DNA of 64,000 nucleotides from a virus (taxonomy: Duplodnaviria; Caudoviricetes), in the IMG/VR virus record IMGVR_UViG_3300028591_000076, positions 160,001-224,000 of that record. The stretch is one strand, 5' to 3'. The notes below the pieces were generated by a model that made no database searches, was not told the DNA's origin, and saw only the letters and a list, made by a program, of their open reading frames with translations. Positions within the stretch are counted from its first letter, which is position 1. Each line of letters opens with the position of its first letter. Shown in pieces: positions 7,713-45,109 of this stretch. The position numbers were made by a program, and so were the translations under genes.

Positions 7713-7976
7713 ATGATTTCTGTAAATACTAATAATGAAATATATAAAAAATATGCTAACAATCCTTTAGCAAAAGGATTATTTAATTATATCCTAACTG
7801 AATATCATGACCAGCCTGATGAGTTTCTAAGACATTATACTTCTTATCAAACAGCTGAAGAAATTTTGGATGAAGCATTTAATAGAACATCATTAGATGA
7901 TGCTAAGTTTGTAATTGATGATTTCTTTAGAGATATTATGAAAGAAAAAAATAAAGGCAGATATTACGGTATGTAA
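7713..7976 (+). CDS. Hypothetical protein
   Basis: 87 aa, AGGAG RBS, followed by a terminator. Confidence 0.6.
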   Translation: MISVNTNNEIYKKYANNPLAKGLFNYILTEYHDQPDEFLRHYTSYQTAEEILDEAFNRTSLDDAKFVIDDFFRDIMKEKNKGRYYGM

Positions 7977-23438: not shown

Positions 23439-24020
23439 TTATACGCCTAATACTGCTTTTGATAGAGCAGAAGAAGCACCAGCATCTCTCCAGCTAGGAA
23501 CAGCAATTACTGCCATTTCTTGTGGTCCCATGTTTTGAATTGCCTTTGTTACTTCTAATTTTGGCGGATAAGGATTTCTAGGTGTTGGGGTATTAGAGTC
23601 TTCAACAGACTTAGTATAAGCCATTCTCTGGCCATTATCATAAGTAACTGCCTCTTCCCAATACTTAATTCTATCTTCTGTTTCTCTATCTTTATCTTCA
23701 ATATTTTTTATTGCATTTAAATATTGTTGGCCATTTATTGCTACATACATAACAAAGTCATTAAAATCAACTGCATCTTTATCAATTGATTTCCATTCTG
23801 TATCTGGCACATATGACCTAATAGAGTTTACATTACCCACTTTTTCATTATTCATAATTGCTAATTTTGAGAAATCCTCATGGTCTCTCATAGCTTTATA
23901 AAAGAGGGTATCTGACTCTGTTCTTATGTCATCCATGCTTTCGCCTGCAGCATGAATATGTATATGCTTTAAGTCGTTTGCGAAAAGTGCCGCATAATAT
24001 GCTAATTTAGAATATTCCAT
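23439..24020 (-). CDS. Degenerate Dps/ferritin-like protein
   Basis: ALFANDLKHIHIHAAGE..DDIRTESDTLF..D.ED resembles Dps helices A-B. Confidence 0.45.
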   Translation of the reverse strand: MEYSKLAYYAALFANDLKHIHIHAAGESMDDIRTESDTLFYKAMRDHEDFSKLAIMNNEKVGNVNSIRSYVPDTEWKSIDKDAVDFNDFVMYVAINGQQYLNAIKNIEDKDRETEDRIKYWEEAVTYDNGQRMAYTKSVEDSNTPTPRNPYPPKLEVTKAIQNMGPQEMAVIAVPSWRDAGASSALSKAVLGV

Positions 24021-32222: not shown

Positions 32223-32753
32223 ATGGTAAAGTTTCTCAAAACAAAAGATTATCCTGTAAAGTCACCTAAATGTAACGTAGGTCAGGACGCAGGAATTGAT
32301 TTTTATGTACCTTCCTATTCTGAAGGTTTTGTAAAAGCATTTAAAGAAAAAAATCCATCAAAAGAAATTGAGGAAAAAGATGGAAAATATTTTATTAGAG
32401 TTGCGCCACACTCAGATGTAAATATTCCATCAGGAATTTATTCATCATTTCCATCAAATATCGCCCTTGTAGGTGCTAATAAATCTGGTGTAGCATCAAA
32501 ACAAAAACTTATCTATGGCGCACATGTTATTGACTCCTCATATCAAGGTATTATTCACCTTCATATGATTAATACATCTGATGATTGGCAAGTTATTAAT
32601 TTAGATGAAAAAGTTGTACAGTTTATTCCATTCATTATTGATATTTCTGGTATTAGTGTAAATGAAGAATCAGATATGTCAAAAACAGACTTTTATGAAG
32701 GCAAACAAACTGAACGAGGCGAAGGCGCATTCGGGTCAACTACGCTTAACTAG
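32223..32753 (+). CDS. dut: Trimeric dUTPase
   Basis: DAGIDF, KSGVA, VIDSSYQG, VVQ, RGEGAFGST. Confidence 0.95.
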   Translation: MVKFLKTKDYPVKSPKCNVGQDAGIDFYVPSYSEGFVKAFKEKNPSKEIEEKDGKYFIRVAPHSDVNIPSGIYSSFPSNIALVGANKSGVASKQKLIYGAHVIDSSYQGIIHLHMINTSDDWQVINLDEKVVQFIPFIIDISGISVNEESDMSKTDFYEGKQTERGEGAFGSTTLN

Positions 32754-33773
32754 GCTTTTTTGAATTATTTCATTTATAAATCCTGGGTAATTTTTATTAT
32801 CCAGGATTTTTTTATATTCAGTTATATCCGCTTCTCGAAGAATATTCACTCCTAGTTCTTTCATTTTTTCTTGTTTATTAATTTCTGAAAACTTTCTATA
32901 AGGATTATATAAATTACCATTTTCATCAAAAAATTGATCGCCTTTTATTTCTGTAAATATACCATTTATTATGAAATCGGGCTCATAATGCCTTGTTTTA
33001 CCAAAATCATCAATATATGTAAATGCGCACTTAGGATGGTAATCAAATATAATATTTTGGTCTATAAGATATAAGTAAACAATAAGCTCCCAACTACTAT
33101 CAAACTTTTGACCATTATAAATATATTTATAACCCCAATTATTTTGATGATATGGTAGACCAAACCTAGCTAAATTTGTTTGTTTAGCTTTTTCTTTTAT
33201 AGACTCCAGTTGTGAAGGATGCTCTACGCCATATTTTAATAGAGATGTTTTCTTTGCCTTATCTTGTACATCTAAATTACACATAGGAGCTGGTCCACCA
33301 TATTTTTCAAGATTTGTCTCTTTAGCTTTTTTACTAGCTTTTCTACGTTTATCTTCTGTATATGAATTTTGTATTTTATTTACAATATCCTTATTTTGAC
33401 ATGCAAACTCTGTTCCATATACTTTTAAGCAAGTATTTTTTCTTTTTTCTTTAAACTCATCTAAAGAAATGGGATTAGTAGTACCATATTTGTCTTTACA
33501 AGTCTCAGCCATTTTAGACTTCCAATTCTCAATATAGCTATCTTTTGACCCATAATTATTTATAATACTTTGCTTCTTATAACAATCATTACATAACAAT
33601 GTGAGCATACGTGTCATTCTATCCGTACGCATTCTCATTATAACATCTTTTTTACATTCTCTACATGTAAAAAATATATAAGTATTATAACGAATATTAC
33701 TTATTTCTTCCTTCGTCAATTTGTTAATATTAAATGGATTAGATTGTGAATTATTTATATTACTAAGTTTCAT
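32736..33773 (-). CDS. Zn-finger/KYG-repeat PD-(D/E)XK homing-endonuclease-like protein
   Basis: CREC..CNDC; KYG repeats; FDSSWE..YEPDF..TEIKGDQFF; convergent with dut and overlapping its 3' end by 18 nt. Confidence 0.75.
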   Translation of the reverse strand: MKLSNINNSQSNPFNINKLTKEEISNIRYNTYIFFTCRECKKDVIMRMRTDRMTRMLTLLCNDCYKKQSIINNYGSKDSYIENWKSKMAETCKDKYGTTNPISLDEFKEKRKNTCLKVYGTEFACQNKDIVNKIQNSYTEDKRRKASKKAKETNLEKYGGPAPMCNLDVQDKAKKTSLLKYGVEHPSQLESIKEKAKQTNLARFGLPYHQNNWGYKYIYNGQKFDSSWELIVYLYLIDQNIIFDYHPKCAFTYIDDFGKTRHYEPDFIINGIFTEIKGDQFFDENGNLYNPYRKFSEINKQEKMKELGVNILREADITEYKKILDNKNYPGFINEIIQKSLVKRS

Positions 33774-33817
33774 AATATAATTAGTAATTGATTGACCAAA
33801 GCTATAATGGAGAAATA

Positions 33818-33835
33818 ATTTACTCTAGAGTAAAT
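33818..33835. promoter_or_regulatory. 18-bp perfect palindrome (candidate operator)
   Basis: ATTTACTCTAGAGTAAAT lies between TATAAT (33803-33808) and the GAGGAG RBS. Confidence 0.45.
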
Positions 33836-33846
33836 GAGGAGTCAAA

Positions 33847-34008
33847 ATGACTATAAACTTAGAAACATACGAAATTGATACTTTACTTGAACTACTTAAT
33901 CGTAAAATCGAAAAGGCTGAAGCTAAAGAAATTGATGAAGCTCAAGTAAAATATGTAAAAGACCTAAAAAGTATTAAAGCTTCAATTGAAGCTCAAATTT
34001 CTAATTAG
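33847..34008 (+). CDS. Small 53-aa coiled-coil protein upstream of the ncRNA
   Basis: Below the track cutoff; GAGGAG RBS; MTINLETYEIDTLLELLNRKIEKAEAKEIDEAQVKYVKDLKSIKASIEAQISN. Confidence 0.75.
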   Translation: MTINLETYEIDTLLELLNRKIEKAEAKEIDEAQVKYVKDLKSIKASIEAQISN

Positions 34009-34020
34009 AATAAATATAGC

Positions 34021-34421
34021 AGTGTAGCAAGACTGATTGAAAATATTGCTAGCGTTTATGTTACGTATGGCCTTACGCTTTGAACGAAAAGGCTGCTTTC
34101 CAAGTGCATTTGGGCACAGATGCTATCTGTACAGACTAACAATTTGGACGAGTTAGTATATAGCTATAAACTGGAGTCCGGAAAGCTTAAGATACCATGC
34201 ATGAAGTCCAATGGAGTTGACCAAAGCCCAAAGACCCGCTTGATTTTGGTAGTTATTCGTAAGGATAACGCACGTGGACCAGCACGATAATACCTTCTGG
34301 TGTGGAGACAACATCTAGATATACTATATCGCCGTGGATGCAAAAATACGCTAGATAAGCTCCCTGAAACTGTGGCACGGATGGGTTAGTAATGAACCTA
34401 ACGACTACCTAACATTACACT
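34021..34421 (+). ncRNA. Large structured non-coding RNA (~400 nt), family unassigned (ROOL-like candidate)
   Basis: No ORF; ~43% GC against ~28-30% background; terminal helix AGTGTAG/TTACACT; long-range pairs; GNRA-capped hairpins; followed by a terminator. Confidence 0.75.
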
Positions 34422-34431
34422 TAAATAATAG

Positions 34432-34459
34432 GCGCTCTCGTTATGAGAGCGCATTTTTT
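34432..34459 (+). terminator. Intrinsic terminator closing the ncRNA transcript
   Basis: GCGCTCTC-GTTAT-GAGAGCGC followed by ATTTTTT. Confidence 0.85.
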
Positions 34460-34480
34460 ATAAATTTATTAATTTACATT

Positions 34481-35035
34481 ATGAATAAAATATTTGAGTC
34501 AATCTATAACAATAGTAAAAATACTAGATTATGCGAAATGTCAGCAAGAGTTGCATATAATAAAATAAAACCTGAACTTAGTAAAACAACAAATGGCCCA
34601 TTAAGTATAAGTGAATATGGCAAAAAATTTAATAGCTATGAAAATGAGTACTTTACTGATGCCATGGGTAATCCTATTAAAGCGCTTGAATTTATAAAGT
34701 CTATTTATAGCTTAGCGAAAGCTGATAACTATGAACCGCAAAAAATTAAGGATGCTTTATATTACTTTTTAGAACCGGCAAATAAAAAATTTATTATTCC
34801 TAATAATTATACATATATAGATGTAAAAAAGAAACTTTTAAATGGAAAAGAGACTATAATAAGAAAAGATATTAGTAGAAGTGCGTCATTAGATATTTTA
34901 TTATCAGATATAATTGGCGGGCTTGAGAGTAACCTAGATATAGTAGATGTTACTAATAGCGATAATAAAAACCTTTTATTATTTAAGCGTAAAAAACAGC
35001 CTATTTCAGAAGAAGAATTAAAAAATATCAAATAA
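34481..35035 (+). CDS. Hypothetical protein with N-terminal IFESIY..RLCE leader
   Basis: Putative capsid-targeted family; ATTAATT lies 6 nt before the ATG. Confidence 0.6.
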   Translation: MNKIFESIYNNSKNTRLCEMSARVAYNKIKPELSKTTNGPLSISEYGKKFNSYENEYFTDAMGNPIKALEFIKSIYSLAKADNYEPQKIKDALYYFLEPANKKFIIPNNYTYIDVKKKLLNGKETIIRKDISRSASLDILLSDIIGGLESNLDIVDVTNSDNKNLLLFKRKKQPISEEELKNIK

Positions 35036-36641: not shown

Positions 36642-37436
36642 ATGACAGAAATAATAACAACAGCCGCAAATGCGTCTACAGGATTTTATATTATAATAGG
36701 ACTCTTAATAGTAATTATTAGCGTACTAATATTAGTAAGCGGCTGGTATCTTATTAAAAATACAAAATCTATCTCTATAGGTAGTCTAAAAATTGATGCA
36801 GCTAAAAAGGAATCGGTAAAAGAACCAGATAATAAAAAAGATAAAGAAATACATGAAGCAAAAAAGAGTGTAGAGGATTATACTAGAAGTATATTATCTA
36901 AACAATTTGACCAAGTAGTTCCTTTTCTTTCATCATTAAGGCCTATATTTAATAGACTCTGCTATTCAATATTAAATGATGCTATGGCGGAAAGCTTAGG
37001 AGTAGAGAGAGAAGTAAGAATACCACAAAAGGATGAGTCTTGCAAAATTCCAGGTAGCCATTATAAAGTTGAAACTGTAAAAACTTATATTGCTGAGCCC
37101 CAAACAAGAGTTTTTACAAACCTAGTTGAAAGTACTGTGGACTCTCTAATAGGCAAAATGGAGAGAGAAATATATAATATGCTTGTAAATAATAATATAG
37201 GTAAGTCAAGAGATGATGTAAGAACATATATCCATATGAAAAGTGAAAACTTAATAGGTATTATAAGAAATTGTTTATGTGACGCTTATAATCAACTAAG
37301 CAATAAAAATCTTTTTGACACAAAATCATATTGGGCTGAAACAGGAATTACATATCCATCAGACTGGATAGAAGATAAGTTATATAAATTATTCGTATTA
37401 TGCTTACAATGTAGATATTCTGATTTCGATGAATAA
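36642..37436 (+). CDS. Single-pass membrane protein (possible holin/lysis-related)
   Basis: N-terminal TM (FYIIIGLLIVIISVLILVSGWYLI); ACTAATT upstream. Confidence 0.6.
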   Translation: MTEIITTAANASTGFYIIIGLLIVIISVLILVSGWYLIKNTKSISIGSLKIDAAKKESVKEPDNKKDKEIHEAKKSVEDYTRSILSKQFDQVVPFLSSLRPIFNRLCYSILNDAMAESLGVEREVRIPQKDESCKIPGSHYKVETVKTYIAEPQTRVFTNLVESTVDSLIGKMEREIYNMLVNNNIGKSRDDVRTYIHMKSENLIGIIRNCLCDAYNQLSNKNLFDTKSYWAETGITYPSDWIEDKLYKLFVLCLQCRYSDFDE

Positions 37437-44203: not shown

Positions 44204-45109
44204 ATGAATAAGGAAATATTTGAGTCAATATATAGAGAGTCCCAAAAAGACGAAGATTATGAACAGCTAAGTTATCTATTTAATAAATGGAATAGCCTAC
44301 GTACCCAAACTAGTGAAGCATATAATTATGCTAAAAGTTTTTCAGATGGCGACAATTTTATGGATGCTCAAAAAGTTCATGGGTATAGAGGTGCAAAAAA
44401 TTTTCAAGATGCTAGCTGGCATAGATATGCATACTTAAAAGCTGAAAGAGAAAGAACAAAGAAAGAGTTTGATGAACTTTTATCTAATTGTCCAGACTTT
44501 AATACTGATGACGCAAATAGATTATGTAATAATGAACTTGCTAAGTATATAGATAATCTAGATAAAAAAGGTCTAAGAAAAAATACTGTAGGTATTGAAC
44601 AAGATGAAAGCCTACCTCATATAAATCAAAATATAACAGTAGAAGTTAAATCACAGAAGCTTAGTGCTATTAGAGACCTAAATGGTAAACAAGGCGCATT
44701 TGTAAATATTACTGGTAAAGATGGACTAAGCTATTCATTCTGGCTATTTGTAAATGGTAATAGTGAACTTTTTAAGGATATGCGCGCTATTAAATCTGTA
44801 TCTGGAATAGTTAGTAAAATCAATGATTTTCATGGAAATCCATCGATAATGCTTAAACAAGTAAAAATTGAATATGTAGATATAAATATTTATAGTGAAA
44901 CTGAATTTCAGGATTTCTATGATAACTTAAATCCAGAGCCTATAAAAGTTGAGTCTGAAGAGGACTTACCAAAAAATGCAAAATTATTTAAGACCTGTAT
45001 TAAAGAATATAGTCATGGCTACATATATGGTGCAATAATTAAAAAAATTTATAAAGCTGATGACTTATATTATTTTATAGATAAATCTTGGCAAGACTCA
45101 ATGGACTAA
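44204..45109 (+). CDS. Protein with IFESIYRES leader and an OB-fold-like segment
   Basis: NGKQGAFVNITGK...VSGIVSKINDFHGNPSIML; ACTAATT lies 6 nt before the ATG. Confidence 0.55.
   Translation: MNKEIFESIYRESQKDEDYEQLSYLFNKWNSLRTQTSEAYNYAKSFSDGDNFMDAQKVHGYRGAKNFQDASWHRYAYLKAERERTKKEFDELLSNCPDFNTDDANRLCNNELAKYIDNLDKKGLRKNTVGIEQDESLPHINQNITVEVKSQKLSAIRDLNGKQGAFVNITGKDGLSYSFWLFVNGNSELFKDMRAIKSVSGIVSKINDFHGNPSIMLKQVKIEYVDINIYSETEFQDFYDNLNPEPIKVESEEDLPKNAKLFKTCIKEYSHGYIYGAIIKKIYKADDLYYFIDKSWQDSMD

Follow-up and report, generated by a model that had tools for sequence, protein, structure and literature searches.

The question raised by this locus is what a GC-richer island of some 400 nt, devoid of protein-coding genes, represents in the genome of a gut or rumen phage, and whether it constitutes an RNA gene in its own right. 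We examined it within a 64,000-nt window, the whole stretch of DNA analysed here, which covers bases 160001-224000 of an IMG/VR phage record that is 239,841 bp long, has a GC content of 30% and is estimated to be 76% complete. The preliminary description of this DNA had proposed an ORF-free island of ~43% GC that is followed directly by a terminator and is not separated by a terminator from a 53-aa ORF upstream, and each of these features was confirmed. GC content is 0.427 over 34050-34349 versus 0.25-0.30 (approximately 27%) in the flanks, the largest ORF inside the island on either strand encodes 59 aa, and directly after the island comes an intrinsic terminator at 34432-34459 (+), made up of a 9-bp GC-rich stem (34432-34452), a 3-nt loop and a T-run; the 53-aa ORF occupies 33847-34008, with no plus-strand terminator between it and the island. 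The RNA is single-copy in the 240-kb record. Folded as a single sequence, the island reaches -100 kcal/mol, which is close to the value of its shuffles (z = -0.65 on the plus strand and -0.73 on the minus strand), so the anatomy is as described and structure is not established from the lone sequence.

We compared the island with known RNA families. At gathering thresholds, Rfam 15 gave no match in a search of the whole 64-kb window. At E <= 10 on 33700-34600, only three chance matches were returned, the nearest of which, to cow-rumen-3, scored 15.7 bits where its threshold is 86.7, and covers the RNA 3' end, the terminator and downstream sequence. The covariance models for ROOL (RF03087), GOLLD (RF01998), OLE, raiA and HEARO gave no match in this interval at the same cut-off, and the likeness to ROOL that had initially been suggested for this RNA is therefore not borne out. 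Similarly, an Rfam search of four homologue loci at E <= 1 yielded no match. RNase P RNA (P4 core, CR-I to CR-V, Rfam models) was without a match even at E <= 10, group I and II introns gave no Rfam match and the RNA is intergenic in all four of its gene contexts, and ARAGORN detected neither tRNA nor tmRNA in the window or in the whole 240-kb record, in agreement with the earlier statement that signatures of tmRNA, RNase P and group I/II introns are lacking. Several resemblances noted by eye were also discarded: a CsrB-like sponge, for which 9 GGA motifs were counted versus ~6.5 expected from base composition, several of them inside stems, and RNase P-like, group I R/S-like and HDV-like features, which Rfam did not support. 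In the literature, we found no description of this RNA or phage.

Close relatives of the 184-aa protein encoded downstream of the island were recovered from Logan, ENA and JGI assemblies, on contigs that carry the island at 84-93% identity. These contigs are L002, L009-L011, L012/L013, L003/L015 and L014, the island of the last being identical to that of the window. When JGI metagenomes were searched for an invariant 20-mer, they yielded L102, which belongs to a cow-rumen assembly (90%), and the partial copies L103 and L104. The copies in L002, L009, L012, L003 and L102 are full-length and 84-93% identical, and the partial L103 and L104 are up to 96.5% identical to L102. The known set thus comprises six distinct full-length sequences, the window included, and two partial ones within an identity range of 84-97%, all of them from gut or rumen samples; the homologues are few, all at least 84% identical and partly recombinant.

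Searches elsewhere were negative. The island had no blastn match among GenBank phages (INPHARED), protein searches of IMG/VR with the 184-aa protein, the 53-aa protein and the helicase recovered no relatives, and four DNA patterns run against IMG/VR returned either nothing or chance 17-mer matches in coding DNA; one 22-base pattern had no match in genome contigs or metagenome contigs. The host appears to be a gut or rumen Treponema, judging from a FlaB encoded by the phage, which shares 70% identity with the FlaB proteins of Treponema MAGs from gut and rumen. BLAST of 401 Treponemataceae genomes did not find the RNA, and a covariance model of its 3' domain (R1) gave a best E of 0.069 per genome across 151 Treponemataceae genomes, which is the chance level. 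Against RaK2, the same 3'-domain model matched only inside the tailspike (E = 0.018) and DNA polymerase (E = 0.10) genes, also by chance. As a separate observation, the locus of L009 (ENA contig k141_1798127) is also present on contigs of 553,723, 351,527 and 299,115 bp, so the genome of the phage may be far larger than the 240-kb record.

An alignment of eight sequences (A3) defines a conserved RNA body of ~406 nt at 34019-34424 (+). In every gene context, similarity among all homologues starts exactly at G34019 and ends past the T-run of the terminator, which accompanies the RNA into every context and whose stem covaries (GCGCUCU/AGAGCGC versus ACCCUCU/AGAGGGU). In L102, the right edge of the insertion lies directly after this T-run. 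In pairwise comparison the RNAs are 86-94% identical, and in these pairs of genomes the 184-aa gene beside them reaches 65-88% at third codon positions, which indicates that the RNA evolves more slowly and is subject to purifying selection. Indels are single bases, and variable columns are distributed over the three phases as 30/32/21, with no codon periodicity. Together, these comparisons show an RNA that is under purifying selection and that is, judged by its pattern of substitution, non-coding.

We then asked which helices the homologues have in common by listing every helix that can pair in all sequences of the eight-sequence alignment. Four helices of at least 5 bp carry at least two pairs changed on both sides, compared with 0.11 on average and never more than one in column shuffles that retain each column's pattern across sequences (0/300). 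A hand-assembled model comprises 13 helices and 76 pairs, with 99.4% of cells paired, and contains 15 pairs with compensatory changes versus 6.3 +/- 1.7 in shuffles (0/500). Slid controls, in which partners were moved by 1-3 columns, gave 0-2 compensatory pairs; the helix set was picked and scored on one alignment, a circumstance that the column-shuffle null covers and the slid controls do not. The compensatory events are few, and most trace to the L003 and L102 lineages. From these alignments, comparative support for a conserved fold is strong, and the earlier proposal of a large structured phage ncRNA outside the known families is in line with both the fold and the lack of an Rfam match.

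At the 3' end of the RNA, an H-type pseudoknot spans 34382-34418 (+), all of its cells being paired and its two stems having two and three pairs changed on both sides. Stem 1 (34384-87/34395-98) occurs as UGGGUU/AACCUA, UGGGCU/AGCCUA or UGGGUG/CACCUA, with two covarying pairs, and stem 2 (34389-94/34413-18) as GUAAUG/CAUUAC, GUAUAC/GUAUAC or GUACUA/UAGUAC, with three; loop 3, CGACUACC, is invariant. Upstream of it, the helix AUCUAG/CUAGAU (34313-18/34351-56) has the variants AUCCAA/UUGGAU and AUCUGG/CCAGAU, amounting to three compensatory pairs, and is enclosed by GGAG/CUCC (34304-07/34360-63). The helix UUGGU/ACCAG (34246-50/34278-82), whose closing pair is U-A, U.G or C-G, surrounds the hairpin GUUAUUC-GUAA-GGAUAAC (34252-58/34263-69), capped by an invariant GNRA loop. 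The 5' domain (34095-34186) is closed by GCUUUCC/GGAAAGC (34095-101/34180-86) and contains hairpins at 34116-21/34125-30 and 34135-40/34152-57, the latter in four versions; it is preceded by an invariant hairpin at 34069-74/34089-94. Besides the pseudoknot, there are two long-range crossing helices on the plus strand. The first, UUGGAC/GUCCAA (34144-49/34206-11; UUGGGC/GCCCAA in L003), joins a loop to a distal segment with one compensatory pair and all cells paired, and crosses the 5' domain helix as either a pseudoknot or an intermolecular contact. The second, CAUUUG/CGGAUG (34107-12/34378-83), is the weakest helix listed, with one compensatory pair and two one-sided changes; its pair 34111/34379 is U.G, C-G or U-A. 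Both crossing helices nevertheless count among the best-supported elements of the fold, together with the two pseudoknot stems, the helices 34313-18/34351-56, 34246-50/34278-82 and 34095-101/34180-86, and the hairpins 34135-40/34152-57 and 34252-58/34263-69. A possible 5' hairpin, GCAGUGU/AUAUUGC (34019-34049), has 96% of cells paired and no compensatory pair, one pair being broken in L009 and L103. Long unpaired blocks, for example 34027-42, 34051-85 and 34283-34300, are invariant.

These comparisons bear on the pairings first proposed from the single sequence: a conserved fold was confirmed, and most of the suggested long-range architecture was not. Among the local hairpins, ACTAAC/GTTAGT has two covarying pairs in the homologues, GTTATTC-GTAA-GGATAAC has one covarying pair plus two one-sided changes, and ACAGAT-GCT-ATCTGT is kept with wobble changes only. 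By contrast, the long-range pairing TTTGGGC/GCCCAAA is interrupted by three mismatches in L002 and L009, GGTAGTT/GACTACC is disrupted in L012, L003 and L102, and CCGTG/CACGG is broken in L003, where position 34379 covaries with 34111 instead. ACCAAAG/TTTTGGT loses a pair in L012, and it is TTGGT/ACCAG (34246-50/34278-82) that is compensated. The supposed terminal helix AGTGTAG/TTACACT gives way to the pseudoknot, since its 3' half is part of the stem 34389-94/34413-18 that covaries three ways. Finally, CTAGCGT/ACGCTAG could form, yet its rival ATCTAG/CTAGAT (34313-18/34351-56) is better backed, with its three compensatory pairs.

The abundance of G.U pairs in the model places the RNA on the plus strand, which is also the strand of the terminator. 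This is pertinent to the possibility that the conservation is instead the signal of a small protein gene on the minus strand, or of a decayed protein gene: an arginine-rich 59-aa frame with a TTG start at 34164-34343 (-) is open in all six homologues, with pN/pS of 0.5-0.7. This ratio, however, is close to neutral and derives from only 3-9 synonymous changes, the variable columns are without codon periodicity, compensatory pairs fall both inside and outside the ORF, and the frame spans less than half of the conserved block. Moreover, read on the minus strand, which is not that of the terminator, the numerous G.U pairs would turn into A.C mismatches. We therefore consider a protein-coding origin of the signal extremely unlikely, and the minus-strand frame probably stays open as a side effect of RNA conservation.

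The RNA and its terminator are found in four gene neighbourhoods belonging to two distantly related gut/rumen phage lineages. In the window and L014, the RNA is preceded by a DUF7487 homing-endonuclease-like gene and the 53-aa ORF; in L002, L009, L103 and L104 by two minus-strand genes and the remnant of a folD 3' end; and in L003 and L012 by a xanthine/uracil permease gene and folD, whose frame ends within the first 9 nt of the RNA. The fourth neighbourhood, that of L102, consists of an AAA ATPase, an array of ~80-aa CxxC proteins (a Zn-finger array), the RNA and an unrelated 64-aa ORF downstream. L102 and this phage have in common only a ~40%-identical ATPase, encoded elsewhere in the genome, and their RNAs are 90% identical. 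The RNA of L104, which belongs to the other lineage, is 96.5% identical to that of L102, pointing to exchange of RNA alleles between lineages. Relatives without the RNA exist on both sides. In L004-L008, a 75-nt spacer links the 53-aa ORF to the terminator and the 184-aa gene beyond it, the spacer of L004 containing only short RNA-like patches; and none of L115-L123, which are relatives of the L102 ATPase at 63-90% identity, has the RNA, the flanking small genes abutting in L115 and L116, whose ATPases are 90% identical to that of L102. The four contexts, together with close relatives in both lineages that lack the RNA, define a discrete, mobile and dispensable module. Judged from these genome comparisons, the RNA is a mobile, dispensable accessory gene that is exchanged as a cassette among uncultured giant phages.

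Several features of the neighbouring genes were recorded in the course of this comparison. Pfam and PHROGs recognised only dUTPase and DUF7487 among the neighbour proteins, and the 184-aa, 53-aa and L102 64-aa proteins are orphans. The permease and folD genes (L003:1251-3537 and L012:1-2546), folD encoding methylene-THF dehydrogenase/cyclohydrolase, sit between the dUTPase gene and the RNA, and L002 and L009 retain only the 3'-end remnant of folD. The DUF7487 protein, with homing-endonuclease-like repeats, is encoded at 32736-33773 (-) of the window and occurs only in this haplotype and L014, being absent at the site in L002-L013. In one relative, a TnpB (OrfB_IS605 / Cas12f-like) gene is inserted downstream of a flaA-like gene (L012:5282-6508). 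The tandem array in L102 (L102:2974-4244), located after the AAA ATPase, contains six ~80-aa paralogues with CxxC...H...C motifs. The window also encodes a 301-aa ORF at 44204-45109 (+) whose N-terminus, MNK(E)IFESIY, is like that of the 184-aa gene (32% over 65 aa, E = 0.012) and which has the same start motif; by this similarity, it may be a distant paralogue.

The variety of upstream genes is informative with regard to a further possibility, namely that the RNA is not a separate gene and instead forms a 3' untranslated stabilising or processing element of the gene before it. The lack of a terminator between the upstream ORF and the RNA in this genome would fit such a role, as would the entry of the folD frame into the first 9 nt of the RNA in L003 and L012, and no promoter common to all four contexts is visible. 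The upstream genes are unrelated, however, being the 53-aa ORF, folD, a small ORF in L102, and genes on the minus strand in L002 and L009 that cannot be co-transcribed with the RNA, and a pseudoknotted fold of ~400 nt with invariant single-stranded blocks far exceeds what protection of a 3' end needs. We regard this explanation as very unlikely. The 53-aa micro-protein, earlier suggested as a possible partner of the RNA, is not a conserved one: in three of the four contexts no such ORF lies ahead of the RNA, and L004-L008 encode the micro-protein but not the RNA. No protein gene accompanies the RNA across contexts.

How the RNA might be transcribed is suggested by a CTAATT motif at 34001-34006 (+), which is promoter-like, overlaps the stop codon of the 53-aa ORF and lies 13 nt before G34019. 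CTAATT occurs 283 times on both strands of the 240 kb, and 20 ORFs of the phage record have (A)CTAATT at a distance of 11-13 nt from the ATG and lack an intervening Shine-Dalgarno sequence; in the window, these ATGs include those at 36642, 44204, 59013 and 63475 on the plus strand and at 24020, 25240, 33773, 38335, 42746, 46557 and 51062 on the minus strand. By its placement, CTAATT looks like a phage-specific -10-type promoter element for leaderless or near-leaderless mRNAs. The motif ACTAATT-N5-ATG (ATTAATT in this genome) is also present between the terminator of the RNA and the ATG of the 184-aa gene. From this arrangement, the RNA looks like its own promoter-to-terminator unit in this genome, and the 184-aa gene like one with a separate start. 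Co-transcription with the 53-aa ORF, as initially put forward, could occur here, where no terminator intervenes, but it is not a conserved arrangement and a promoter-type motif directly precedes the RNA.

This apparent independence of the RNA and the gene after it argues against the role of a cis-regulatory leader, that is, a giant riboswitch or attenuator whose terminator gates the gene starting 21-30 nt downstream. In favour of a leader, every context has a gene start ~20-30 nt past the T-run, the 184-aa gene is what follows five of the six full-length copies, and this gene is frameshifted in the RNA-less L004-L008. Yet the downstream gene of L102 is the unrelated 64-aa ORF, so there is no constant gene family to regulate, and the start motif of the 184-aa gene falls between the terminator and its ATG. 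Furthermore, the linker at 34419-34431 and the terminator stem vary freely with no compensating upstream change, so that a non-exhaustive look at the pairings shows no sign of an antiterminator, and 400 nt far exceeds the size of known leaders. A leader therefore has only a slim chance of being correct. The frameshift itself (L004:1834-2390, also in L005-L008) lies in an A-run near codon 117, predicts the same 131-aa product in five assemblies and leaves a +1 frame that continues to the normal C-terminus; this points to a true pseudogene or, alternatively, to a site of slippage.

The sharp 5' boundary and the mobility of the RNA would both be explained by a ribozyme or a selfish mobile-element RNA, whether self-cleaving from upstream transcripts, intron-like or guide-RNA-like. 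Conservation begins at G34019 in four unrelated upstream contexts, presence is patchy with alleles crossing lineages, the fold combines long invariant unpaired blocks with pseudoknots, and in this genome the RNA is preceded, at a distance of 250 nt, by the DUF7487 homing-endonuclease-like gene. Against this, no ribozyme, intron or HEARO/omega-RNA model of Rfam matches even at E <= 10, no gene is interrupted by the RNA, and terminal repeats or a target duplication were not seen. Nor is the RNA accompanied by a transposase, reverse transcriptase or nuclease, the endonuclease-like gene being confined to one context. We consider an origin of this kind unlikely, though less so than a leader.

Based on the covarying fold, the purifying selection and the constant boundaries across contexts, the locus is very probably a true gene for a structured RNA whose family has yet to be catalogued. 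Our preferred explanation, which we favour on balance as a whole, is that 34019-34459 (+) would be an independent accessory gene for a ~420-440-nt, multiply pseudoknotted ncRNA, the family of which is not in Rfam, and that this RNA would act in trans through its three-dimensional shape. Transcription would start from CTAATT at 34001-06, possibly with additional read-through from the 53-aa ORF, and would end at the terminator. The long invariant unpaired blocks and the GNRA loop favour tertiary packing or a conserved binding surface over antisense regulation. The most likely modes of action would accordingly range from binding or sequestering a host or phage protein, as a decoy or ribonucleoprotein scaffold, to self-assembly in the manner of ROOL and GOLLD; a trans-acting decoy or scaffold, which we put forward from the genomic context, is a tentative proposal that has less than an even chance of holding. 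A hypervariable accessory region and a patchy distribution fit an exchangeable, host-directed function, and from this context the RNA may be an exchangeable 'moron' with a role directed at the host, possibly in anti-defence.

To our knowledge, very few large, intricately folded bacterial or phage RNAs have been described, and those that are known, among them ribozymes, OLE and the RNA-only cages of ROOL and GOLLD, have each proved interesting. ROOL and GOLLD are large 'ornate' RNAs that occur in bacteria, prophages and phages; ROOL measures ~580 nt and GOLLD ~800 nt, and both are often located near tRNA genes. Like them, the RNA described here is a large, GC-richer, multiply pseudoknotted ncRNA that is carried by phages, has its own terminator, and is sporadic and dispensable; ROOL was also named from the rumen, and this RNA likewise comes from gut and rumen samples. 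Unlike them, it is shorter, at ~410 nt, and matches neither covariance model. With respect to tRNA genes, L102 has them on both sides of the RNA, 4.4 kb before and 2.8 kb after it (L102:1-153 and 7793-7864), whereas there are none in the 240-kb record. OLE, raiA and HEARO (the IscB omega-RNA) are of similar size and structural complexity, but neither OLE proteins nor an IscB gene is found near this RNA. Cryo-EM has shown ROOL and GOLLD to be RNA-only homo-oligomeric cages (PMC12286853). By analogy with these cages, the covarying pairs that we have drawn as pseudoknots might just as well join separate molecules.

At its most far-reaching, the finding may represent the first example of a class of large phage RNAs that is new, spreads horizontally and works without a dedicated protein, forming a self-assembling RNA-only multimer or a new ribozyme that excises itself from read-through transcripts at G34019, and serving giant spirochaete phages as an exchangeable weapon against host functions; we view this extension as speculative and rather unlikely. 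A compact RNA of ~410 nt with a covariation-backed core that includes an H-type pseudoknot is tractable for cryo-EM or chemical probing. With six closely related sequences known, the RNA is a candidate RNA-based effector acting between phage and host.
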